NCBI RefSeq assembly: GCF_036971445.1
Contig: NC_091470.1
Span: 333,374,001 to 333,438,000 of the forward strand
From: Narcine bancroftii
Taxonomy: Eukaryota
DNA length: 64,000 bases
Reading direction: 5' to 3'
The position numbers and the translations under genes are program-made. The notes beneath the pieces were generated by a model that was not told where the DNA came from, did no database searches, and saw nothing but the letters and a program-made list of their open reading frames with translations. Positions within the stretch are counted from its first letter, which is position 1. Each line of letters opens with the position of its first letter. Positions 8,790 through 62,071 of the stretch are shown in pieces.

Positions 8790-8799
8790 GTATACATTT

Positions 8800-11700
8800 T
8801 GTGAGAAATACAAGCTTCCACTTTATTAGACCCAGAGAGAAATAACAGACACCAGTGTTTTCCCAAATTCAAAGAAGGAACCCTTTTATTTACAATTAGA
8901 GAACTATTTATAGTATTTACAATGCCCTTGGTCCTGAGGAAACTATTGCGAGCCCTTTCCCACACGTGACTAGATTAGTTGATTGATGGCTCAAGTCCTA
9001 AGAACTAGTAACACCCACTCCTGGTGACGGTGAGGTTGCTCTGTTTAAGGCGTCCTAGCACCCTCCCCCTTTGAGCTGGATACTCATATGAGTGGAGTCT
9101 GGGATCAACTTGGAAGGCTTCATTGGTCTCTGAACTCATTGAGACTTCCTTATGGGTTCCAGTGCTGTAGAGGGTATAGGCTTGTTTCCGTGTGATGGGT
9201 GTGATTGGTGGTTCAGTGGCTTCTGAAGTACAAATGTGTCCAACAGGGCCTCCAGGCTGAGTTGCACAGGTGTAATTTCAGCAAGTTTGCATTCAGTTGG
9301 TCGCAACTGGTTGGCATTTCTGGTCCATCGCTCTGGTCCAACTTGTATGTAGTAGAGAACATCTCCAATTTTTCTTAGGATTCTCCCAAACTGCTGTACA
9401 TCTGACTTATCTCTATTTCCACACCAACACACATCGACCATCATGAAATGTGCTTTCTTTGGATCCATGCCAGCAATTGTTCTGTTGTTCCATCTCATAA
9501 TCTCTCGGTCCAGATTCTGATCTTTGTGGAAATAAGACATCATATTGGTGTTCGTACTTTTCCTACTAAAGAACTTTTCAGCAGGCGAAGTGGCAACTGG
9601 AGTTCATGGGCTTGGAGTGATCCTGTAATTTAACAAGAATGTCTGCAGGATCTCCATTCGACCCTCCCCCTTGGCCTTGTTCAAAACTCGTTTGAACGAG
9701 TCCACAAAATGTTCTGCTTGATCATTGGACTGATGATGATGTGGAGGTGAATGAATATGCCTGATATCGTATTTCTTGCAAAAAAAAAATCAAAGCTGGC
9801 TGCAGTGAATTGTGTCCCATTGTCTGAAACTAATGTTACAGGAGAAACAATGTGATTGAATATGGACGAGTTCCATGATAGTAGCTGATGCATTTGGTTG
9901 GGCTACTTTGATGATCTCAGGCCATTTGGAGAATGCGTCCACTACGATTAGATAGTACTCGCCATTAATTGGTCCTACATAGTCAATATTAAGACGATTC
10001 CATGGCTTGCTTGGTTGAGACCAGGAGTGTAGATTAACAGAATTTTGCAATCAAGGCACATCGGACTGTGTCAATTGTTCAATTTGGTCATCCATCAGAG
10101 GCCAATAAATATAGCTTTGTGCAAGTGCTTTCTTTTGATTCATTCCAGGATATCAACTGTGAAACTGTTTGCGGATTGTAGATTGCAGAGTTTTGGACAT
10201 CAAAATCTTCCTTCAAACAAATTAGTGATTCCCAATGATTCTCATCCTTTGAAGAATGGCTGGATTCTCATTCGTGGGCAAGTTTTTAGTTGCTCTGAAT
10301 TGCTTATCTGACTCTGCTGTGACCAGCAGTGAATTAATACCATCTTCGAATACCTGGTTGACCTCTGCCTCTACAGAGAAAGTTCTGTGACAAAAGTATC
10401 TTGCGGCTCTGTTTCCTGCTCACTATCGAATTGTGACAATGCCTCAGCTTGCCCGATACTTGTGGTTGGAAGGTATTAAATTTTGAAGTCATAACCAAAT
10501 AGCACAGTTGCCCATCTTTGCAGATGGTTTGCTGTGTAAATCGGAATTCCTTTCTTTGAACCAAACACTGCTAGGAGTGGCTTATGATCTACAAGGAGAG
10601 TGAATTGCCATCCCAAAACCATTTTATGGAATTTCTTCACCGCAAAAATAACTGCTAGAGGTTCCTTTTCAATTTGTCCATAGCTTTGCTGTTGTTAGAG
10701 AGTGTGCTGCATGTGCTATGACCTTTTGATTCCCAACTGGGAATATGTGAAAAATGACTGCACCCACTCCAGGCTGTGATGCATCTGAAACTTCGACAAG
10801 TTTTGATCGTAATGCTTCAAAAGAAGGTTTGAGTTTAGATCGACTTAACTTGATTGAACTACTCTTGACATTTTGATGTCCATTTCCATTTGCCTTCCAT
10901 GGTAAGGAGCTTGTTGAGTGGATCTTGGAGTTTATGCATCTCCGGCAGAAATGAACTGTAGTGACTGATAAGACTCAGGAATGAACATAGCGTGGTCACA
11001 TCTGCGGGTGCAGGCATGTGCAGGATAACGTCAGTGTTTTGTGGATCTGGCTGTCGTCCATGTTCGTTAATGACAAAACCAAGATATTTCAATGAATTCA
11101 TGAAAAATGTGCAGTTTCTGGACACACTCGAAAACCGTAATCTTTGATGCGGGCAGAACATAATCAAGTCAATCAAACAATTCTTGAGCATGTGCTCCCA
11201 TTCCCAGATGTCATCTAGGTACACTGCAATTCCTGGAACATCATTCAGCATTGTGGCCATGATCTGTTGAAAGATAGCTGGAGCAGTCTTCACTCCAAAT
11301 GATAGACAGGTGTATCTGAACAGTCCATGGTATGTGTGAAGGTTAACAATTCCTTGGATTCATCATCAACCTCCACCTGTAGATAAGCCTCTGCTAAGTT
11401 GATCTTCTCAAAACTTAGCGAAGAGGCCATCAGGCAATGGCAGTGGGTATTGATGAGTTTCCAAAGCTGCATTCAGACCAGTTAAGACATATGGAGCCAT
11501 TCGATATTTTTTTTTCACCACCACGATAGGTTCAGCCCATGATGAGTAGCTGACTTGTTCAATTAGTCCTTCATGTTGCAGCCGTTCAAATTCTTGCTCC
11601 ACCTCTTGAAGAGCTGCATATGGGATAGATCATTTTGGCTTGAAAGTTGGTTTCACGTTTGGCAGAAGACAGAGTTTCACCTTTGTTTTAGTGCACCATC

Positions 11701-13290
11701 CGGGTCCTTTGAAAAATACTGTTGCATGGTGTGGCTTTAGGTGTCCCCGCAACTTTTATGGGGTATGTGCCACTTGCAACTTGTGGCAAATATTGTTGAG
11801 TGGTTGGTCCAGTAGGTTCAACCTTTCAATTCATTCAAGACCCATGAAATCGAGGTTAGAACATTTTACCAGTTAACATGTTCTATTTTCTTCTATGCTG
11901 TTTAAGCTGACGGAACAGTCAACTGAACTTAACATCTCCAGGATCCATCCCGGAAGTGTTCCATGCCATGCTTTCATCGGAGTCACCTCTGGCTGACCAA
12001 TCAGTTCCACACTTTCTTTGATATTAGAGTAATGTCAGACCCTGTATTAATTTGAAGCCTCACTGGGATGCCGCTAATGTGCACTTTCACATATTTCTTG
12101 CATTTGGCCTTAGCCACCTTGAAAGTCATTGTGATAGGTTTCATTTTTGAAGGTGAAGCGAACTTATCAGGTGTTTTCCGTCTTCCAGCACTACAGCATT
12201 ATGCTTTATGCCTCTGGCACTTAACATTTACTGCAGCGTTAACATCTGTACAGGCAGTCACGAGGGTAGTGCCACTCATTGCATTTCCAACAGATGCTGG
12301 GTGGTTTGGCTGATTGGGCCACACTTTTGTTTTGTCCAGCAGGGTCTGTTGATGACTGTCTGGGCACAACCATTTGAAGATGGGGTGTCGTGTTTTAGAT
12401 TAATTAAGCGTTGACGTTCGGCTGTTAATCTTTGAAGAGTCAAATCTAACTCCTGCTCAATCTTCGCTAGCAAACATGTTCTGAGGTTGGCATCTTGGTA
12501 TGACTGCATTCCCACTACACAGACTAGACACTTAAACTGGTCTTCAGTCAGTGTAGGGAGTTTAAAACGCTCACTTAATTATTTTGAGGCACTGATACTG
12601 TATGTTGAACAGTGATGTTTGCTCACTGAATATCTCTGCCAACATGTTAAATGTTTCCCTGAAGCTGAGGTCGTGGGGAAATTTTGGCAGAATGAAGTTT
12701 GTGTAGCGCTTGAGTGCCTAACTTCTGAAACAACAGCCTAATTGAACTTGGCAAAGTCGACTATAAATGAGTCTTCATACTTTTTGAACCATGTTTCAAA
12801 TGTGCTTGACTCTGGGACAAATGAGATAGAGTGATAGAGCTCATTAAAGCATCTGTCCAATTTGAATTAACTTCAGGCTCACCTTCTACAATGGCTGGAG
12901 TCCCAACGCACATTTAATCTGCCAGCTAGTCAATTAGCCTTACTTGTTTTTCTGCTGCTGCTAAAGAACTGCCTGCAGATGTTCCATTGTGACTGACCTT
13001 GTCACCTCATAGCCAAAATGTTGTAAATATGCTGAATGTGTGTGCTGTGCACAGGTTGTGTGGAATACAAGCTTCCACCTTGTTAGACCCAGAGAGAAAT
13101 GACAGACACCAGTGTTTCCCAAATCCAAAGAATGAATCCTTTTATTTACAATGCATTTGGTCCCAAGGGAACTCTTGCGAGCCCTCTCACAAACATGTGA
13201 CTGGATTAGTTGATGATAGCTCAGATCCCAAGAACTGTTAACGTCACCTCCTGGTGATGGTGCAGTCACTCTGACCAACCATGTCAATCT
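8800..13290 (-). mobile_element. Gypsy LTR retrotransposon 1 (degenerate, both LTRs), antisense in intron 3 of the RBM43-like gene
   Basis: Diverged direct LTRs at about 8800-9060 and 13020-13290. Polypurine tract at 9061-9072. RT (TAPAIFQQIM...VYLDDI), integrase (PWNRLNIDYVGP...VVDAFSKWPE, VSDNGTQF) and gag remnants. PBS-like TGGCTATGAG near 13006-13015 (minus). Many frameshifts. Confidence 0.9.
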
Positions 13291-16429: not shown

Positions 16430-16660
16430 CACAGTCTCACCGTGTTCATCTCTTGCCACGATCCTACTGTGCTCATCTCTCCCCACAATCCCACCATATC
16501 CATCTCTCACTGTGATCCCACCATGCCCATCTCACACAGCGATCCCACCACAACCATCTCTCACCAACATCCCACTGTGCTCACCACTTACCATGATCCC
16601 ACAGTTCCCATCTCTCATCATGATCCCACTGTGCCCATTCTCTCACCACAATCCCATTGT
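16430..16660. repeat. Minisatellite, about 9 degenerate units of about 24 bp
   Basis: Recurrent catctctcacc(a/g)cgatcccactgtgcc unit, which produces the repetitive ISHHDPTV pseudo-ORF. Confidence 0.85.
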
Positions 16661-24860: not shown

Positions 24861-25381
24861 TGTTGTGTGTGAAAGAAACGTGGCCTCCCTGCCTCTGGAA
24901 TGTGGTCACATGTCCTCCTTGTCTGAAACTTATTTGGAAGTCACATCTTCTGTCAATCAAGGTTGGACTCTGGCCATTGGCTAATTTATATCTCCTAGGG
25001 TCATTATTGGCTAGAAGTAGTGATTTGAATTGTATAAAACATCGATGCATAGCACTTTTCTCTCTCTCTGCCTTGTGGTCTAAGCCCTAGATATTACTGT
25101 GGACATGGCTGGAAGTGTTGCAGGTAAGGTGTGCACTACACTGAACCGGAGCTGTAGTTTTGCGATGGATTAATACTTGCAGAGAGCTGCACCCCCATTG
25201 GTAAGGCTACAAGGTGTGTGTAAGAGTCCCCATTTGGAGAGGTCTCTTGCTGGCACTAGATGGAGTAAGACGATGAGAGCATCGCTATGACCATTTAAAA
25301 AAAATTCCCTTTTTCTAACAGCCACCAAAGTTAAATTAGACTGGCTCTCTTTGTAACAGTATTTCATTTTATTTTCAATGG

Positions 25382-28300
25382 TGTAATGGTATGTATTGTA
25401 TATGCTAATGAGCTCAGGCTGGCCCACCCCCTGATGACATTCTTACCTGGACTCCTCTCCTGGGACTCAGGCCATAAAGGTCAGGCCGCCTTTCCCTTCC
25501 CTGCACTTCCCTAGTTTAGATCTGGGCCAGCTCAAGCCTTCTGTGCAATAAAATCTATCGTTCCCCTCAAGTCTTTGTCATTGCAATTGTTGGGGCAACT
25601 GATAGTGCCCAACAATTTATTGCACAAAAATTTTAATGTCTCTGGTAATGGAGAAGTTGCTGCACCCCAATTGGCTAGAAGTGGATCCCCAAGTTCCAGG
25701 TGCATCGGAACTCTGAGCAGTGTGTCAATTCCTTTAACAACTTCCTGAAGGCCGCTGCTGGAGTGGTCGATTTGGACGAAAAGAGGCTGAAGTTCCTACA
25801 GGCAAGAGTTGGCCAGAGAGCTTTCCAGGCCATTAGAAGTTGCACAACCTACTCAGAGGTGATGGCTGAACTACGGACACTATACAAGCCCAAGATCAAC
25901 AAGGTCTACTCCTGTTACCTCCTGGCATCCAGAAAGCAGCAGCCTGGTGAGTCAGTTGAAGATTTCGTTCGAGCCCTGATCACACTGGGAAAAGACTGTT
26001 TTGGGAACCCCACTGTTTTGGTGCCAGGGGCCAAGTGCATGGAAGACCTGGTCTGGGACGCTTGCGTGTCAGGGTTGAGGTCGGATTATATCCGACAACG
26101 TCTCCTTGAGGCCGAACTGGCCTGTTCTGTGCTGTAAGTGGATATATGGATAAACTCCTGCTGAAATGGGCAATCCAACTGGCCAGAACCTTAGACTTGG
26201 CCCAGCGCCACGTGGAGTCGATCGCAGGCAGAAGCAGGCCTACCCAGTACGTGCCACCATGAGGGCTGCCATCCTGGGAGTTGGCTTCGGGGATGGCCGA
26301 CCAGACTGTGGCTGCAGTAGCACCGGGATTGTCGAAGTGCAACTTCGGTGAGCAGGCAAGACATCCACAATGTCTCTCTCTCCTGTGAAAGGAGCTACCT
26401 GCACGTGCTGTGGGAAAAAGGGCCACTACCAACGTGTCTGCAGGTCCAGAGCCCCATCTCAGAGCAGCATGGCGTGTATGGCTGAGGAGCTTCCGGTGCT
26501 GTCCGCGTGTGCAGTAAGGCGAGCGCCATTTTACCCACTCCCACTGCCATCCTCTGCGCAGCAACAGCCCTCACCAGCGACATCACTTCCACCCCCATTG
26601 ATGTCACTTCTGCCTTCTTCACCGGCGTTGGTAGCATGGTCAACATGGAGGCCACCATCTTGGGCATTGGGCCTCCCCACCGACGACAAAGACGACACAC
26701 CTATCTTGGCATCGATCACCTTGGACCAAGCTAGCCCTCACCCGATTACGAACTCCATGATGCAGATTGAGGTGAATGGGCACAAACCGAACGCCTCTTC
26801 GACAGTGGCAGTACTGAAAGTTTTATCCAACCCGAGGTGGCCCATACACTCTCGATCTCCATTTGGCCGATGACCGGGTCCGTGTTGATGGCAGTGGAAG
26901 ACCAGCGGACCGGGGGTACTGTGTAGCATCTCTGTTGGTGGGGGGGGAGGGGGGTGGGGGAGTGTTATAAGGACTTCTTATTGTTGGTCATGCCCCAGCT
27001 CTGCACGCTGATCCTCCTGGGCCTTGATTTCCAGAGTTAGTTCAGGAATGTGACGATGGCGTTTGGGGAGGCCCCAACTTCTGCTCACCATTTATAACCC
27101 ACTGCTTACGGACCACCCCCCCCCCCCAATTGAGCACCCAGCATTCGACACTGTCCTGCAGTCTCACCACCCTGCAGGTGGCCCCTCCATCACTATTTGC
27201 AAACCTCACCCCGGACTGTAAACCAATTGTCACCAAGAGCAGGAGCTACAGCACTGAGGATATGGCATTCATCCAGTCCGAGGTTCAGTGACTCTTGGTG
27301 CCCCTGGAGAGCACAGGTACTTGTGGTTAGAGGGGCAGGCAAGCCCCGGATGGTGATTGATTATAGCCAAACCATCAACCGCTTCATCCAGTTGGATGCA
27401 TAATCCCGGATAGCCAACTTGGTCAATAAGGTCGCACAATACAGAGTCTTCTCGACCATTGATCTCAAGTCAGCTTATCATCAACTCCCACTTCGCCCGA
27501 GTGACCGGCTCTATATGGGTTTTGAGGCTGATGGCAGACTTTTTACACTTCCTATGGGTGCCTTTTGGTGTTACTAACGGTGTCTCTGCTTTTCAGAGGG
27601 TCATGGATTGGATGTTGGAGGAGCACAAGCTGGCGGTGACGTTCCCGTATCACGACAATGTCACCATCTGTGGCCACAACCAACGGGACCATAACATGAA
27701 CCTCGCTAAGTTCTTGCGTACGGCCAAGTCTCTCAACTTGATGTACAATAAGGACAAGTGTGTGTTCAACACAGACCTTCTGGCCCTTCTCAGTTGTCCC
27801 GTGGCACATGGTGTCATAGCCCCGGACCCCGACCGCATGCGACCCCTTATGGAGCTCCCAGTCCCAAACACCCTAAAGTCCCTGAAAAGATGTCTGGGGC
27901 TGTTTTCCTATTATGCACAATGGGTGCCCAATTACGCTGATAAAGCCCTCCCCCTTTAAGTCCACAACTTTCCCGTTATCGGCGGAAGCCCAAGCTGCAT
28001 TCTTCCAGATCCGAGGAGACATCGCAAAGGCCATGATGCATGCCGTAGATGAGTTAATTCCATTTCAAGGTGGAGAGCAATGCCTCTGATTTCGCACTGG
28101 CCGCCACTCTTAACCAGGTAGGCAGGCCAGTAGCATTTTTCTCCCGCACCCTACACAGTCCTGAGGTGCGTCACTCCTTGGTCGAGAAGGAGGCCCAAGC
28201 GATCGTTGAGGCGTTGTGCCACTGGCGTCATTACCTGGCCGTTAAACATTTTACCTTGCTGACAGACCAGAGGGCCGTGGCCTTCATGTTTAATACTAAA

Positions 28301-29889
28301 CAGCGAGGTAAAATCAAGAACAACAAGATTCTTAGGTGGAGGATCGACATTTTGTACCAACCAAGTAAACTCAACGATCCCCCAGATGCCCTATCCTGGG
28401 GGACGTGCGGCAGTGTGCATCTTGACTGTCTCCAGACCCTCCATGACAGTTTGTGCCACCCCGGAGTCACAAGGTTATACCACTTCGTCAAGATTCGGAA
28501 CCTTCCGAACTCCGTTGAGGACTTCCGGTCCATGACCAGGTGCTGCCAGATCTGCGCTGAATGTAAGCCGCAGTTCTACCAGCCCATAAAGGCACACCTC
28601 ATCAAGGTCACATGCCCTTTTGAACAACTCAGTATCAATTTCAAGGGCCTCTACCCACTACAAATAGGAATGTCAACTTCGTGATGGTTGTGGATGAGTT
28701 CTCCAGGTTCCCCTTTGCTATTCCCTTCCTGGATATGACCTCGGCCAAGGTCATCAAGGCGCTGCACAGTATCTTCACCCTATTTGGGTACCCCGAGTAC
28801 ATCTGCGATCGTGGGACCTCGTTCGTGAGTGAGGAACTGCGACAGTACTTCCTGGCCAGAGGCATAACCACCAGCAGGACCTTCAGCTATAACCTCAGGG
28901 ATAATGGCCAAGTGGAAAGGGAGAACGCCACCATCTGGAAAGGAGTGCTCCTGGCCCTTAGGTCCAAAAACATGCTGGTATCCCGCTGGCAGGATGTCTT
29001 GCCCGAGGCGCTTCACGCCATCTGATCACTCCTGTGCACCACGACTAACACCACCCCGCATGAACGTTTGTTTGCTTTCCCAAGGAGATCGGTGAATGGT
29101 GCCTCCATTCCTCCTTGGCTGGCAACCCTAGGGCTGGACCTGCTACGGAGACACGCGAGGGGCCATAAGACGGATCCACTGGTGGAATCGGTACACCTCA
29201 TACATGCCAACCCTCAATATGCATTTGTGAGATACCCCAATGGCCACCCCACTGTGCCTATCTGAGACCTGGTCAGGGCCAGGGATCCCGAAACTGCCCT
29301 GCCTGGCACAGCCCATCCCACGGAGCAGACCACACCACACAGGAACGCAATACTGGAGGCTGAGCCACCCAGCTCTCCTCTAGGAGTCGGTCCCCTGGGA
29401 AGCATCAGATCCCCCTTCCTCCCAGGAGCCCTCAAGCATTCCCCTGGCCCTGACTGCTCCTTCCCCTGCCCTCCTAGGACTGCTTCCCCTCCTAAATAGC
29501 TGAGCTCAGACACGCCTGCCCTCCGGCGGTCCAGCAGAAGGAGAAAGTCACCTGTGCGGCTAAACCTCTAGCAATTTCTTTTTCTCCTCTCTCTCTTCCA
29601 TCCCTCTAGTTGTGTAAAAGGGAGTGGGGGGGTTTCTGTTTAAAAAGAGGGTGTGAATGTAATAGTATGGATTGTATATGCTAATTGGCTTGGGCTGGCC
29701 TGCCCCCTGATGACACTCTTACCTGGACTCCTTCCCTGGGATCCAGGCCATAAAGGTCGGACCAACTTTCCCTTCCCTGCACTTCCCTAGTTTGGATCCG
29801 GGCCAGCTCAAATCTTCTGTGTAATAAAGTCCATTGTTCCCCTCCGTTTTAGTCATTGCAATTATTGAGGCAACTGATAGTGTCCAACA
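25382..29889 (+). mobile_element. Gypsy LTR retrotransposon 2, complete with LTRs and TSD, coding regions decayed
   Basis: LTRs at 25382-25614 and 29658-29889 (TG...CA). 5-bp TSD aatgg. PPT at 29642-29657. gag with zinc knuckle (CTCCGKKGHYQRVC), RT (PFGVTNGVSAFQR, YHDN), RNase H (ASDFALAATL...EKEAQAIV), integrase (HPG..CQIC, VVDEFSRFPFA, DRG, NGQVER). Confidence 0.95.
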
Positions 29890-32800
29890 AATGGCATCGG
29901 TCAGAAGTGGAAAAACTTGTCTGGAAGCTAAAAATGTGAAAAACAGAAAAAAAGATGGAAACCCTCAGGAAGATCCTAAAGAAACTCCGTAAACAGTGGA
30001 AATAGTTACTGAACTTTTCGAGAAGATGTATTTTAAACTGGATGAAAGATTGTTAAGTCGAGAATCTATGCTTAAAGGTTTTGAAAGCAAACTAGGTTCC
30101 CTGAATTTGAACTTAGAGACTCATAATGAACTGATCTTTACTCTGGAGCAGGTTGCAGTCAAGTGTGATCAAATGTTAGATTCTTTGGAACAGACTTTAA
30201 CTTCCACTACCACAGCAACTTGACAAGTTTAAAAAGAAAGTGACTGATTTGGAAGGTCACAGTCACAGAGTGAATGTATGTTTTATTGGTATCCCTGAAG
30301 ATACAGAATCTGGTATCTTAATTAAATTCTTTTCAAATTATTTGTTTGAGTTATTTGGGGAGTTGTACTACAGAATCCTCCTATCTTGGAAAGGGTGCAT
30401 CAGGCATTAAGAATGAAACATTCCCCAGAGTTAAAGCCATGACCAGTGATTCTGAGTCTGCATTGCTTTCAGACCAAGAAAATTATAATTCGTGAAGCAG
30501 AATAAAAGAAGAAACTTAAATACAAGGAATTTGAATTCCATATTGTGGAGGATATCTGCCCTGAAATTCTTACTGAGAGTGCATAGTATAAACCAGTGAT
30601 GGCTGAACTGTATAAATAAGAGTTTCACCCTCCCTATTGTTTCCTGCACGGTTAAGAATTACGCCAGAATATGTCCTCGTAAATGGTTTCGTTCAGTGGA
30701 TGGTGCTTGGAAATTCTTGGATCAGCAGCCTTCTACTTTACAATTAATATGAAATAGTTTAATTTGACTGTGGGTGTTTTATCTCTGATGGATTTATTGG
30801 TGTCCTGAGAGGAACATCCTGTTACGTTTGGATGATGTGGACTGGTTAATTTGATTTAAAGCATTTTCTCTTGGTCACTCTATAATTTGGTTGTTTTAAT
30901 AATTGCATTTTTTCTTGAGGGTATCCTATTGTTTTTCAGCTCTATGTTACTTTTCAAGTTAAAATGAACAATGTATGTTAACTGGTTCTGTTTGACCTTG
31001 TGGTTTTCAGACAGACGTCTTTTTGGTTTGTCATTTGATGTTGGATAATTCCTGCTTATTTTGACTACATTATATTAGGGAATTGATTTTTTTTTGTATT
31101 CTGGAGCTTAGCCAGTGAGAAGCAATGGGGGTTGGGGCGTTAGTTAGCTTACTATCCTTCTATAGGATAGTTTTTGGATCTTGGGGGGGAGAGGGGAGGG
31201 ATATATAGATTAGGTTTTTCTCTGGACTGCCTTGGAATTCTAACCTTATCAGTTTAACTGCATTGTTCCTGTTTTTTTCCATGGTCTCCCAACCTCCCTT
31301 TGGATGTGGCTTTCTCTTGCTCAATATACATTGTTCTGTTTAGACTTGTGCTGTATTCAGGCATGATGGATAACAAGGTTTTTAATCCTGTATAATAGAC
31401 TTTGAATGGCCTAAACCATCTAATTAAACAATTTTTTAAAATGTGTGTAGAAGGCTTCAGGCTAACATTACATTTGCACAGGAGATGCATATTTGAGGAG
31501 AGGGTAGTCAGCTTTTTATTAAATTTTGGAAGAGCTAGCAATTTCATTCTTAATCCCAAGATAAAATTAAAGGAATTTTAATTTTTATTGATTCTTTTAC
31601 TCCATTTATACATTTTGATACTTTGCAAACTCCAGTGGTAGATTTCTAATTATATCCAATTCCCTATGTAAAAAGGTAATGTGGGTGAACATTTAATGCT
31701 TCTAATTTTGACACCCAGCATTTTTTAAATGTATGTTTTCATTACTGCCAAATTTGAATGAGTATATGTTGCTTATGGGGGGTGGGGGGAGGGGGGGGAA
31801 ACTTTATGTGCTATCTCAGTCCTTTGATAGATCAGCCTCCAATCAGATACTCCCAAATAAATTGGCTACTTTTATTAATTATTTTTTCTGGGACTCAGGC
31901 TTCTGGATATTTGGAGGTTTTTGCATCCAGATGATAAAGAATTTTCATTTTTTCTCATGTTCACCATATATATTCTAATATAGACTATTTCTTTATTGAT
32001 TCTTGGCTAGCACTGTCTGTTACTGCATGTGATTATGAAGCAATTGTAATATCTGATTATGTACCATTGAAGCTTTCATTTAAACTAGCTATGTAGGTTC
32101 CTGTTCCAGGCAATGGCGATTTAATTCTACTTTGTTAAAGTTCATTAACTTTATTAAAGAACAGATAGCTTTCTTTTTTGCAATGAATTCAGGGAAAGAA
32201 TGTCTAGCTTAATATTATGGGATACTTTTAAGGTCTATCTTCAAGATCAAATTATTTAATATTCAGTAGGGCTGAGAAAGTGAACGAATGAGGAAAGAAT
32301 ATTGTTAGTTAATAAGATTGAAGAAATTGATAGATTACACTCAGTCGCTCCTAATTCTAACCTTTATAAAGACAGAGTGGAATTCCAAATGCACCATGAT
32401 TTGCTTTTAACTTGCGTGAAAGCCATCTTTTAAAATCCAAAAGCATGGGGGAAAATCTGGTAAGTCAATTGAAAGCTGCCATTGTTAAAAGACAGATTAA
32501 GAAGATTTGTAAGAAAGATGGGAGTGTGACTTTTGATCATAATGAAATAAATAAGACATTCCATGAGTTTTATTCCAATTTATATAAATCTGATTTTCCA
32601 GAGAATTCAAGTTCACTGGATAATTTCCTGGGTCAATTAAATGTTCCTAAATTCTCCCAGCATGATTATGTATCATTACTTCTCTCTAGTTGGATAAGCA
32701 CCTTGTCCAGATAGATACACGGTTAAGTTTTTCAAATCATTTGCTAACCTACTTGTTCCTTAGTTATGTAAAGTGTTTAAGGACTCCACCGTGCCTCATT

Positions 32801-43843: not shown

Positions 43844-46800
43844 GTAAGAGCCGAGATGGGGAGGAAACCAATGGGCGAAGCAAAGGGGAATGGAAAGGAG
43901 TTCAAATTCTGCTTTCCTCCCAATGAAAGCATACAAAGACAAAAAACAAAGGACATGAGATATGTAAGAAGAGCATTGACGTGGTCCAGTCAGGCTAGGT
44001 AGAGGGCACCATATTTTGAGTCTGATCCAGAAGAGAATGTGACAAGATATTGCTGATCAGGGTAGGAGATCAAAGGCTCAGAGGATCTACATTTGTTCTT
44101 AAATATCTATCTGGGGAAATTAGTTTTAAAAGGGTCAAATGACCTTTTAATTGTCAACCATGGCTCATAGTTGCTGTTTCTGTGTAAAAATGCAGTTCCA
44201 AACTCTGCTCCAGAAACATGTGTGTGCACACTCCACACATGGGTTGTGGGGAATTAGTGGTTGAGTTACCAGACTGTCAGTTAGAGTTCTACACTCTTGA
44301 TCCAAAGGCATATAATCCTAACATAGCAGCGGAGGAATGTGACCCAAGCTGGGCATCAGTGAACAGGTTGCTTATAAATAACTGGCACCATTGTTGATGG
44401 CTCCTTCCATCAATTTGAGAATGGGCTGATTGGGTGGTAATTAACAGGACTGGATGTGCCTGTTTATTTGTGAGTTGAATATACTTAAGCAAATTTCCAC
44501 ATTGGCAGATTAATGCCAGTGCTGTAACTGTACTGAAAAATCCTGGCTGGAGGTACAGATAGTTCAGGTCTTCAGTACTACAGTCGGGATGTTGACTGGA
44601 CCCATTATAATTACCTGATCCGGAGTTGTCAGCCATTGCTTGACATCATGAAACTTGTAGAAAATAAATTTTGTCATGGTACACATACCAGGAGGGAGTC
44701 GAGATAGTTCAAGGTTCATTTTATTGTTGCATAATAATAATATGAGCAATATGTCTTAACCCAATTAACCCCACTCTAAATATCTATAGCAAATATACAG
44801 ATATCAGATATTTATAAACAGTGTGTATGTGGAAAAACCCAGACCATTACAATATGTGCCCAATATTCAAAAAGAAATTTCCCCCCAAAAAAACCCAGAT
44901 CAGTCAGTCAAGTAAGTCAGTCCAAAAGCAGTCCACAGAATTCACTCTCAAAGTTCAATGTCCAAGCTCAGTTCTTTAACTGATAACAAAGCATGTCGTA
45001 TTGGACGTTGGAGAGAGAAATGACTGATGTTGCGTTGTAGTAAACTTATGAATCCTCATTTATGAGGCATGTACATTTGACTCAGCTCTTCAGCTGCCCT
45101 CTGCTGTTCCAACTGCTGGATTCTCCCTTTGTTCTCAAAAGTTCCAAGCAATTGACGAGTAAGCACTCAGCTCTACCACAGGTTGCACAGAGTTCTTTGC
45201 AGAAATCCATCCCTTAGAATGACAGTCCCCAGTCCAAAAAGTCAGTGCATGGTCCATAACAATAAAAATGCAATTTACATGATATACTTGAACTTTTGCC
45301 TGCATTAATGCAGAGTCACCATGAATATTGTCCAGTGTCCCTAACAATTCTGAGAAAGAGAACCAAAACTTTTACTGTAAAAGAGTCCCTTCAGAGGCAC
45401 TGATTCGCCTCTCATGATCCTGCAACCTCTGCAGCCACACAGACTCCTGTTCAATTGATTCATTTGCAACCTGAGCTTCAGGCCCAAACCTCCGTCGCAG
45501 CCAGGAAGTGTTCAGTGCCCGAGGCCCTTTGATGCCCCTTTCTTTCCCTCAGCACCCTCTAGCATCCCAGTTCTGATACCTGGTTTCCACAAGCCAGCCT
45601 CCAGCCTGTCTATTGCCTGTGTGGGTCCTTTGACCACATCGACAACAGCCAGCAGCTGAAAGCACAGTGCTGTCATATAATGATCTGAATAATTCAAAAA
45701 TTGCTCACAATCAGCATGGAACAGCTGTATGAACATTCCACACATGCCCTTGGTATTTCTGCCATCTTAGAGAGGAGTGATCCACTTGCCACGTTTGGCT
45801 GGATATGTTGCAAATGCTTCAGCCTCATCTTTAGGATATGGATGATGCACCCTTCCATTGACAAAGGTATGGGTAATCTTGGACTTTTCCCCTCCTCCTA
45901 TTAATTATTTAATTATCCACCAGGCAGGATTGAAAATATCTGGCCTGATACGCTGGTTGTTGGATAACTCAATTCTATTGTTGTTTCCACTGTTTTTGCT
46001 GCTTTGCTACTTTGTATGTAGTTACATATTGAAGCTTTGCCAGATTACTGTTTTAATTTAATGCATGTCCAGTTTTCTCCTGCATAGTTTCAAGTGAAAG
46101 AAATTAGTTGCGTTCTTTCTGAGGCAATTGAACCATTTTTAAAATGATGCATGCTCGAATGCAAATGTGGTCTCGTGGAAGCCTTACGGAATCACAGCAA
46201 GGACTTCTTCCCCCTTGCAACCCCTGGTCCTGAACCCCACTGGAAATAAAAGCCAACACACCAGCTGCCTTCCCAATTGTATCTTCTTGAAAATTTGCAA
46301 TAGACAAAAATGCTCGAGAAACTCAGCAGGTCACACGGCGTCCAAAGGAAGAAAATGTCTATAACCAATGTTTCAGGACTGAGCCTTCGTCAAGATATCT
46401 TGACAGAGGGCTCAGGCCAAAACGTTGGTTAGATACCTTTTCATTGCTTTGGACGCTGCATGAGCTGCTGAGTTTCTCCAGTACTACAAATACAGCATTT
46501 GCGGAATTTCCTTGCTTAACTTGTAAATTTGCCGTTTCATGAACCACATCACCCAGATGTCTCCAAACTCAATCATTTACTGGCTTCTCATAATTTGAAA
46601 AATCTATGTTTCTTTGTCTTTCTACTGAAATGAAACACCTCATATTTTTTCATCCTTTAGCCTCTTTCTATTTACTTCACTCACCCATCAGTATTCTAAA
46701 GTAGAGTCCTTGTATCCACTTCACAATTCAGTTTCCACTGAGCATTATATAGTTAGCAAAATTGCACACAATATACCCGGTCCCTTCATCAACCTCATTA

Positions 46801-47126: not shown

Positions 47127-47250
47127 TGGACCAACCCATTCACCGAGCAGTCCAGATTTTAGGATTTTTACTTTTACATTTCAGAAATGCCAAAAATATG
47201 TAAAAGTAAAGATCCTAAAATCTGGACTGCTCGGTGAATGGGTTGGTCCA
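47127..47250. repeat. Near-perfect inverted repeat: 53-bp arms, 1 mismatch, 18-nt spacer
   Basis: 47127-47179 is the reverse complement of 47198-47250. Confidence 0.95.
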
Positions 47251-53560: not shown

Positions 53561-54659
53561 ACAGTGAGCCAATAATCCACTAACGAATCCTAGCTGAAGA
53601 GAGAAACAAGTTTTGCATTCAGTGCACTATCTTCAGAGACTCTTATATCCTGGAGAGTTTGGATCTGGTCCATTCATAATAAAATCATTTAACTGTACAT
53701 AGAATGATATTTCTGTGACTTCAAACTGATGTATTCTGTGTTGTAATTTCATCAGCTTGGCAGCCTATTTTTGGATATGTCTGGTACTGTTCCTGCTAGC
53801 ATGTTCTTCTACACTCTTCAAGAAACCTTGGTTACATCCTTGGTATAATGCTAGTGGTGGGAAATATGCCATGCCGCACAATTCAATTCAGCTGTTATAA
53901 TTAGCTCTAATACACCCATATGCCAGACAGGAATGAGTCTAGTAAATCTTTGTTGCATTCCCTCCAAGGCAAGAACAATATTTTTTTCATAGAAGACCAA
54001 ATTGAACAGAAATGTGCCTCATGAATATCCTGCAGGTCTATAACGAGTGATCCTTGCTCCTTAACCAGTTGCAGGCCACAATAGCACCATTTCAATACCC
54101 TGGGAATAATTTATCCAAGTACACAAAAATGCTGGAGAAGTTTAGCAGGTCATGCAGCATCTTTAGAAAGCAAAAGGCAGACAACAATTTGGGCTTGAAC
54201 CCTTTCTTCTTCATTTTTATGATGTGGATGAAAAGTTTGCAGATGACACTAAGTTTGTTCAAGCTGTGGATGGCACAGCAGGATACAGATCAGCTTTAGA
54301 TATGGGCAGAGAAATGGTAGATGGTGTTTAATCTGGAGAAGAGTGGGGTGTTGCACTTTGGGAGGTCATTGTAAGGAGAACATACACAGTAGGACTCCAA
54401 AAAGCATTCTGATCTGGCGACCTGTGAGTTCTGGTTCACACATCCATGAAAGTGGCCGCACAAGTAGATAGAGTGGGGAAAAAATCATCCTTGCATTCTT
54501 TGGGTATAAAATTAAGGAAGTCATGTTGCAGCTACATAAAACTTTGGTAGCCCACACATGGGGTATTTCATGTAATTCTGGTTTCCTATTGCAAGAAGGA
54601 TTTGGAAAGGGTACAGAAAGATTTACCAAGATGTTGCCTGGATTAGAGGATTGGAGTCA

Positions 54660-55023
54660 TAAGGAGTTATTAGATAAACTTGGGTTGTTTTCTATGAAGC
54701 TTCGGAGGTGGCTGGGCAGTGAGCAGATAGAAACATAAAATAATGAAAGACATTGATAAGATAGAGAATTAGAAATGTTTACCCAGAGTAAAAAATGTCA
54801 CATACAAGAGGACATGCGTTTAAGGTGAGTGGGAGGGGTGGTAAGGAGTTATTAGATAAACTTGGGTTGTTTTCTATGAAGCTTCGGAGGTGGCTGGGCA
54901 GTGAGCAGATAGAAACATAAAATAATGAAAGACATTGATAAGATAGAGAATTAGAAATGTTTACCCAGAGTAAATAATGTCACATACAAGAGGACATGCG
55001 TTTAAGGTGAGTGGGAGGGGTGG
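54660..55023. repeat. 182-bp tandem duplication (1 mismatch) inside a CR1 fragment (about 54230-55230)
   Basis: 54660-54841 is repeated at 54842-55023. Confidence 0.95.
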
Positions 55024-59820: not shown

Positions 59821-62071
59821 CTCCAGAGGCTGGTGCTCTGCTCTATGATGCCCTCCTCTAGTAGCCTACGCACCTCTGTCCTAATGAAGGCTCTGTCCCT
59901 CGGGCTGACCTCCTGCTCTTTGTGGCTATTGGTGTGCATTCTGGGGTCAGGTGTGTGAACAGTGGAGGGGGTTCTATGTTCAGGACAGTCAGGATGCAGT
60001 GTTGTTTCTTCGTAAGGCGTAGTGGGGGGATGAGGCCCGTTGTGCACTATTGTAATGCTTTCTAACTGGCACTGAAAATCTAACCCCAATACTACCGGGA
60101 CTCAGAGGTGAGGGAGTACTAGTAAATTGAACCCTTCATATTTTGTGCTCTGGATTTCTAGAGTAACCCTTCAAAACTGTTTTACCTTAGCCGCAAGGCT
60201 GCTGGCTGCTAACAGGATCTGGTGCTCACTCGGGTGTGTGGGGAGGGCAAGGCGGTTGACTAACCCCTGGTCAATAAAACTTTCAGTGCTTCCACTATCT
60301 ATTAAGCAATTTACCCTCACATCATTAATTTTGATGCACACAGTGGCATCAGATAAATTGTGTGGATTCGCCTGATTCATGCGTGGGGAAGCAAGTCTGG
60401 CGTGTCCTTCGTGTCCTTCCATCCTATAGTACTCGGTGTCATATTCACCTCCTGAAGACTGTGTCCTCTGCCCTGTAGCATTTGTCCAAGATGGCCGGCT
60501 GCACATGGCATTCTACTTCTTCCGTTTGTCTGTGGAGAAAGAAGAGCTTTCCTGCCTCTCATTAGCACGAGAATCGGCCTTGGCTGTGGCCTTGGGGCTT
60601 CTGAAGACTTTTGCATAATGCCCACGTTTTCCACAGTTGGAACAGACATTATCTCTGGCAGGGCAGAGGGCTCTGAGGTGCTTTCTTTGTCCACAGAAAA
60701 AAACACTTGGGACCCTCTGCTGCTGCTGTGAATTCCTGTGAGGTAGCGTACTTTTCTTTTCATGGGGCTAGAGAGTCCAGCAGTTTGTCTCAGTACCCCA
60801 GGGTCCTGTGAGTACTCCTTCAATTCTTTCCTGGACTTTCTAAAGCTTCTGCAATAGTCTCTGCCTTATCTAGCTCCACCATTCTTTTCTCCAGCAATCG
60901 ATGTCTTGTCTCAGTGAACCGTATGCCCGCAACAATTCTGTCCCTAATAAGGTCCTCCGCATACTCCTGAGCTGATACTGCTTTAAAGTTGCAGCCTCTC
61001 ACCAGTTCTTTCAGAGAGAGTATAAAGTCTTTGGTGGACTCCCCTACTTGTGGTGACCTGGTCATGAGCCTGTACCGGGAGTGGAGTTCGCTTTTCCCCT
61101 CACTGTAATGCCTCTGTAAAATGCTCATTGCCTCTTGGTAGGACCTGGCATCCTGTATAAGGGAGTAAGGGTGGTCTCCCAGCTGCGCTAACAACAGCAT
61201 AAAGAGCTCCTTATCCGATGCCTCAGCACCCTCCACATAATTCAGAAAGCATCTCTGCCAACAGCTGAAATGCATGCCGGCTCTGGGATTTCTGGGGTTG
61301 AGCTCCAGCCTGTCTGATCGCAGCACATGGCTAAGCCGCTGTCTCTGGTCCCTTAGATGTAGCAAGGGCAGACCCTGGGGTACTGGGAGCTACTGGTAGA
61401 GCTTCTTTGGGACTTGTGTCTGCTGGAGGAGTAACCTGGGTGCTTGGGGCTGTTGGCTGAGTCTCTAGCTTTGGGATGTTTGCAGCGGGCTTAGGGGGGA
61501 TCCCAGTGTAGCGTCAGGTCTCCCTGGTACTGGGAAAACTGCTGCTGGGGGAGTGATGGAAGCGGTGTCTGCTTTCCCTGGCTCTGAAGTGGTCGCGAAT
61601 ACACATATTTGGCGATCGGGAGCACAACTTGTGGAGATCCTTCCATCGGCGCTTGTAGTGGTCCCTTTCTGATCAGACCGAGGTTTAGGGTAGCGGCGAA
61701 CCCACGGGCAGGCATCTTACCTGCCCTATTGTACTTCTGTGTCACCATCTCTGTCCTCGGATGCACGTGTGTGCTGGTCGTCCCCAGATTCCATTCCTCA
61801 GGAAGAGTCTCCAGGTGGTCGGGAATGCACGTTGGAGCAGAAGCAGTTTCTATCCTAGTAGCTATCATATTAGTTTATTAAATTGTACTGACAATAACCA
61901 CACCAGCAGTATGAGTATAAGACAGTTTTAATAAACTAATATGTACACTAAGAGGTCTTGACTCTCTGCAAGATGCACCCAGAAAGCTAGACTGTAGCCC
62001 TGGACTGCTTTATATATGAGGTCACCAGGATGACCCCTGGTGACCTAGTGGTGTAATTACATATCACAACA
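59821..62071 (-). mobile_element. Gypsy LTR retrotransposon 3, 5' half only (LTR, gag, protease, start of RT), antisense in myosin intron 3
   Basis: LTR at 61884-62071 (TG...CA, TATA and ATTAAA on minus). gag LRSDRLELNP...DLIRDRIVAGI, protease CLIDSGSTESFI, RT start FIRTEVRRLLEEGIIEQSTSLWR, then an abrupt end. Confidence 0.9.

Follow-up and report, generated by a model that had tools for sequence, protein, structure and literature searches.

A Gypsy clade outside the chromoviruses, which lacks a tRNA-type primer-binding site and carries behind its 5' LTR a site that pairs with a 14-nt arm of the same LTR, probably primes reverse transcription with its own RNA, by a cut of the Tf1 kind where the arm ends on its 3' side. 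This reading draws on sequence patterns within and between families of the element. That the primer is derived from the element in one way or another, with or without such a cut, appears very probable, because synthesis must begin at the LTR end, a tRNA cannot follow the variation of the arm, and RNA of the element itself matches the site exactly. Self-priming itself is a known mechanism, that of Tf1. The clade was recognized in a 64,000-nt stretch of the Narcine bancroftii genome (contig NC_091470.1, positions 333,374,001 to 333,438,000), hereafter the window, in which the element Gypsy 2 has the following features:

25377-25381, plus strand: 5' target-site duplication AATGG (identical 5 nt at 29890-29894)
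25382-29889, plus strand: Gypsy 2, whole element (LTR pair and target-site duplication)
25382-25614, plus strand: 5' LTR, 233 nt, TG...CA (86% identity to 29658-29889)
25473-25480, plus strand: TATA-like box CATAAAGG, predicted promoter (8-mer in 87 of 120 copies)
25503-25509, plus strand: initiator-like site, predicted start near 25505 (from the spacing to the TATA-like box only)
25539-25552, plus strand: LTR arm of the 14-bp stem, candidate self-primer (covaries with 25616-25629)
25555-25605, plus strand: predicted inner U5 helix, 25555-25566 with 25592-25605 (RNA fold; 90% of cells paired)
25615, plus strand: 1-nt spacer from LTR end to primer site (a single base in all families examined)
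25616-25629, plus strand: primer-binding site, complement of the LTR arm, without TGG (sequence and family pairing)
25648-29571, plus strand: broken gag-pol region (protein matches; stops and frameshifts)
29642-29657, plus strand: polypurine tract ending in GAA, adjoining the 3' LTR (sequence)
29658-29889, plus strand: 3' LTR (86% identity to the 5' LTR)

The limits of the LTR were set independently of the stem, by alignment with the 3' LTR and by AATGG on both flanks. Gypsy 2 belongs to an old family, and its decayed interior has numerous stops and frameshifts with matches to RT, RNase H and integrase; the gag-pol remnant comprises two CCHC-type knuckles, protease, RT, RNase H and integrase. 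The protease-RT-RNase H-integrase order, the TG...CA LTRs, the short target duplication and the polypurine tract place it in Ty3/Gypsy. Its closest named proteins come first from sharks and rays, and then from a coral, a copepod and a butterfly, while its intact relatives have one open frame each of about 1200-1450 aa.

The earlier note had reported an exact 11-nt complement between the LTR and the sequence 1 nt past its end. Rechecking the coordinates bore this out: TGTGCAATAAA occupies 25542-25552, the LTR terminus ...CAACA runs to 25614, an A stands at 25615, and TTTATTGCACA follows at 25616-25626. The AATAAA signal (25547-25552) indeed lies within the arm, as its last 6 nt. The pairing was thus exact, but the length of 11 was too short, as in the family the stem spans 14 bp (25539-25552 with 25616-25629), of which the window copy has lost one pair to a C-A mismatch at 25541/25627. 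The primer site starts with TTT, not TGG, and is no complement of a tRNA 3' end; an Rfam search on it returned no match. Folding of the leader RNA gave a divided answer: of three leaders folded, each had the stem in both its minimum-energy and its centroid structure, but total energy was outstanding for Gypsy 3 only (z of -4.47, against -1.55 and +0.53 in the other two).

Could such a stem be the chance complementarity of AT-rich sequence? The window does hold 27 exact inverted repeats of at least 10 bp within 200 nt, 12 of which reach at least 11 bp. At the LTR end, however, a match of this length is rare, because only 5 of 20,000 dinucleotide shuffles of the Gypsy 2 LTR reached at least 11 bp when complements to a site beginning 0-5 nt behind the LTR were counted, and for the 17-bp stem of Gypsy 3 no shuffle out of 5,000 rose above 11 bp. 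Chance is already refuted by the family data, that is, by the paired changes within the family and the recurrence in unrelated LTRs described below, and we give it practically no weight.

For the covariation analysis, 180 Gypsy 2 loci were examined; the LTR-gag junction was present in 166, and 132 were distinct. Twelve of the 132 were excluded for a stem indel or fewer than 8 pairs and 120 were scored, an exclusion that lifts the paired share somewhat. Across these copies, 25539-25552 and 25629-25616 formed Watson-Crick pairs in 1575 of 1680 cells, the others being 25 G-U, 29 A-C and 51 other combinations. Perfect stems occurred in 50 of the 120 copies, with 11 different arms, a variety that no tRNA could follow. 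The positions flanking the 14 bp were unpaired (earlier set of 72 copies). In a set of 66 copies, mutual information between variable stem positions was maximal on the diagonal, an arm agreed at 7.2 of 8 variable positions with the primer site of its own copy and at 5.4 with that of another copy, and the states of arm and primer site shifted together along the gag tree. In 37 copies hand-picked to span the subfamilies, 97.8% of cells were paired, and pairing fell to 28-50% when the strands were slid by 1-3 positions. The inner 11 pairs of these copies held 44 double changes compared with 12 in shuffles (0/500), a test inflated by kinship among the 37 copies.

The inner U5 helix behaved differently in the same 37 rows. 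It varied by one-sided U-G changes (14 of 37 at one pair) with one double change, and its covariation was not above shuffles despite the high share of paired cells. Since the U5 helix tolerates wobble and the arm helix is strict, the arm behaves as if it needed complementarity at the DNA level. We infer that the arm helix keeps strict Watson-Crick pairing at the level of lineages, as expected if it is both copied and annealed as DNA. Simple re-templating in every round is another matter: a C-U mismatch at one distal stem pair was found in 10 of 120 copies, and in three elements whose two LTRs agree. Correction of the primer site therefore does not take place in every round, and the mismatch speaks against that scheme. 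As to the direction of information flow, a C arm with a T site was seen in 8 of 48 copies and the reverse in 1 of 48, with mixed flanking markers and an ambiguous root. The window's own mismatch pair, sampled by gag, appeared as C-A in 3 and T-G in 2 of 30 copies, numbers inseparable from decay.

Several observations concern the LTRs and breakpoints of single elements. The two LTRs of one element differed at a lineage-diagnostic site, in one direction, in 4 of 26 elements, which is too few for a conclusion. In L099, L088, L249 and L250 the 5' and 3' LTRs differ at a lineage-diagnostic arm position (C vs A), with a primer site that matches the 3' LTR; intermolecular plus-strand transfer is a possible cause. 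Endpoints of deletions and truncations did not cluster at the arm. The L143/L110 pair provides two single cases: a young copy whose start coincides with the first primer-site base, where it is fused to integrase sequence, and an old copy that lacks exactly the spacer and primer site (window-equivalent 25615-25630).

Two further elements of the window served as comparisons:

61884-62071, minus strand: 5' LTR of Gypsy 3, unrelated to the Gypsy 2 LTR (sequence)
61927-61943, minus strand: Gypsy 3 arm, ending in ATTAAA (inverted repeat)
61866-61882, minus strand: Gypsy 3 primer site, 17-nt complement of the arm, 1 nt past the LTR (inverted repeat and fold)
8799-13273, minus strand: Gypsy 1, with a different gag (negative control)

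As proposed earlier, Gypsy 3 shares the geometry of Gypsy 2 on a different primary sequence, and BLAST between the two LTRs gave no hit. Both arms contain a poly(A) hexamer, yet it is AATAAA in Gypsy 2 and ATTAAA in Gypsy 3. The earlier note had read this pair as compensatory conservation; the pair alone amounts to convergent geometry, and true compensation was found inside the Gypsy 2 family. Within 30 of 30 aligned Gypsy 3 copies the stem region was nearly invariant, at 16-17 bp by eye. The N-terminal gag motif said to be common to the two elements is present in both (LHPNWLEVDP and LRSDRLELNP). Gypsy 1 was likewise correctly described as having an ordinary site, with TGG at 13015-13013 and no stem. 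In its family the primer site is TGGCGACGAG-like and lies 5-6 nt behind the LTR; we take it to be of the tRNA-Arg type. The TGG motif was found in 13 of 20 Gypsy 1 loci (one misplaced), with LTR complements of at most 6 nt, and the remaining 7 loci resemble decayed forms. The window copy of Gypsy 3 ends after the RT start, and no 3' LTR was found for it. Its family has about 200 extra low-complexity, proline-rich codons (window 61400-61860, minus strand), which precede the usual gag start motif and follow an ATG just behind the primer site.

The stem also proved to be a clade-wide structural feature and not chance, as had been suggested: besides the paired changes within the family, it recurs in at least 8 LTR families of this genome and in relatives from other hosts. 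The common layout is CA, a single nucleotide, and a stretch of 13-17 nt that pairs with an arm; this arm has TAAA at its end and is followed by GC in nearly every case. In all families and relatives compared, the TAAA end lies 38-63 nt upstream; the base after the arm is G in all families but L124, and every family has a hexamer inside the arm (AATAAA, ATTAAA or AGTAAA). An RT fragment yielded 52,107 first-look candidates in this genome, a figure that is not a copy number. In a young family the stem was exact over at least 14 bp in 20 of 26 loci, and in 8 of 10 whole copies the two LTRs were identical, the 5-bp duplications matched and the frames were open over 1405-1500 aa; these copies share the stem and lack TGG. 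The best copies of the older families L331, L332, L334, L339 and L340, and by eye those of L281, retained 11-13 of 14 pairs, and some decayed copies of old families only 7-9 of 14.

The relatives from other hosts (L123-L128) are retrotransposons of animal type, complete or nearly so, and lie on contigs binned with bacterial genomes, very probably through host contamination. The stem was exact over 14 bp in L123, L127 and L128 and over 13 bp in L124, and had 12 of 14 pairs in L126; L125 is without its 5' end, and the layout was thus seen in five of the six. Their RTs are 44-62% identical to those of this genome's families and are scattered over several branches of an RT tree (midpoint root, no named references). 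A metagenome scan with a decayed query gave two short irrelevant matches, and a search of viral contigs gave no match.

The position of the arm in the RNA depends on where transcription starts. In the window copy CATAAAGG lies 31 nt before the initiator-like A at 25505, and in the young family the same TATA/initiator motifs are separated by 32 nt, and a full YYANWYY match precedes the arm by 38 nt. Among 12 copies of this genome, four have a TATA-like box 63-76 nt before the arm by pattern, and four more have AATAAAG in its place by eye. From the TATA/initiator spacing, the transcript is predicted to start 31-46 nt upstream of the arm. In L331, L332, L336 and L338 the TATA-like box reads AATAAAG, which is itself a poly(A) hexamer upstream of the arm. 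Separately, the young-family gag contains a GTGAGT splice donor (L146:1399-1404, the same site as L148:2056-2061), and contigs from three of three runs of one study leave the element at GTGAGT into differing foreign sequences. These junctions look as those of spliced chimeric transcripts would.

Herein, we describe how priming by an internal cut might proceed. The transcript would start about 31-46 nt upstream of the arm, which would then fold onto the primer site around the 38-63-nt U5 loop and bury the 5' poly(A) hexamer; the hexamer of the 3' LTR, which has no primer site behind it, would stay free. The element's RNase H, acting as in Tf1, would then cut at the arm's 3' edge (TAAA|GC) and free a 3' OH. 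The short minus-strand copy could then jump to the 3' end of the RNA via the roughly 20 nt between the hexamer and the poly(A) site. Finally, copying of the primer during plus-strand synthesis and DNA-DNA annealing in the second jump would keep arm and primer site strictly Watson-Crick. The cut requires a poly(A) site downstream of the arm and would therefore explain the coincidence of arm and hexamer. More tentatively, and as something we hold possible rather than likely, a single 14-bp helix may serve as a two-way switch throughout a widespread non-chromovirus clade of animal Gypsy elements: it would silence the 5' poly(A) signal, and its cut at the conserved TAAA|GC, about 50 nt inside the RNA, would yield a capped self-primer with a long unpaired 5' tail.

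Two other explanations accept the stem and differ on its use. The primer may be the element's RNA without an internal cut: a transcript, either full-length or a short one of the LTR, would be cleaved at the poly(A) site, and its 3' end, trimmed to the duplex, would pair in cis or in trans. All covariation data fit this scheme equally well, the arm lies about 20 nt from the predicted poly(A) site, and the constant ending of the arm on a hexamer is explained. Nevertheless, we judge it unlikely, as it requires a trimming step for which no precedent was found, and the conserved GC behind the arm together with the inner U5 helix resembles a recognised cut site in a cis fold.

Still somewhat less probable is a stem that does no more than cover the 5' poly(A) signal, with priming by a tRNA fragment, another small RNA or a protein. 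The presence of the hexamer within the arm in every family suits this explanation, and structural occlusion is known in retroviruses, the HIV-1 5' poly(A) hairpin being formed by base pairing over the 5' AAUAAA (PMC12789967). In the present clade the hexamer pairs with the primer site, which lies beyond the LTR, and the pairing is therefore confined to the 5' end. Occlusion would, however, call neither for strict Watson-Crick pairs nor for a register fixed at 1 nt from the LTR end, no alternative primer site lies behind the LTR, and Gypsy 1, whose LTR carries AATAAA, manages without such a stem.

Cutting at the arm thus stays our preferred reading, and its closest precedent is Tf1 (bioRxiv 10.1101/2022.12.06.519325; PMC4600332). 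In the literature covered, self-priming in Gypsy elements is confined to the Tf1/sushi chromoviruses, where the primer is the mRNA's 5' end, freed by an RNase H cut, and a three-duplex 'pretzel' surrounds the primer duplex. Tf1 and Tf2 of Schizosaccharomyces pombe, Tj1, Tosmo/Tcry and the Tf1/sushi group also have a primer site directly behind the 5' LTR that is complementary to their own LTR; they too lack a tRNA site, and an inner U5 helix is possible. Unlike them, the present clade has two CCHC-type knuckles and no chromodomain, its stem measures 13-17 bp and always closes on the poly(A) hexamer, and its arm is predicted to lie inside the RNA, while in Tf1 the 5' end of the RNA is the primer. 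At the integrase C-terminus no chromo family was found at E up to 1 in five of five intact relatives scanned, and the clade is therefore not the Tf1/sushi group. For the plant elements Tcn1 (Gypsy) and TAR (Copia; Houba, Osr-1), self-priming was predicted from sequence alone (PMC6317226); these are other lineages in other hosts, and the present clade adds paired changes within one family.

With respect to classification, a search of solved structures gave Ty3 as best match only, and the clade RT as query gave no match to the broken, TGG-primed Gypsy 1 at E 1e-4. The gag has two knuckles, and two gag knuckles are a trait of Mag. Cigr-1 is about 4.2 kb long; its LTRs measure around 245 bp, and it has a single ORF of about 1200 aa and a SURL/Mag-like gag. 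Those traits fit the proteins of the clade's relatives, a likeness by description only. The Cigr-1 clade is recorded from Ciona and also from molluscs (PMC6238403). Identity with Barthez is unlikely given its size of 7.3-8.8 kb (PMC11117352), and the hairpins of bivalve TRIMs (PMC6934838) have a different layout, lying within the internal domain. Our literature search, whose coverage did not extend to GyDB, Repbase reports, supplements or the majority of subscription papers, turned up nothing on the primer site of this clade, so a prior note is quite possible.

If true, the two-way switch would add to self-priming a second form, built independently, whose primer is not taken from the first bases of the RNA. 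A second, abundant self-priming clade in animals would imply that independence from tRNA had arisen, or had lasted, more than once, and annotation based on primer-binding sites would then miss or mislabel such elements. By coupling primer and hexamer, one helix would deal with both priming and 5' read-through, two problems of an LTR. The young family, with its identical LTRs and open frames, makes natural RNA ends and RT intermediates mappable.

The window contains other repeats as well. Long, MITE-like inverted repeats lie at 47127-47250 and 46313-46481 (39-bp perfect arm; 81% over 170 bp), and a 27-nt minisatellite and a 182-nt tandem duplication with 98-99% identity lie at 16430-16645 and 54653-55016.
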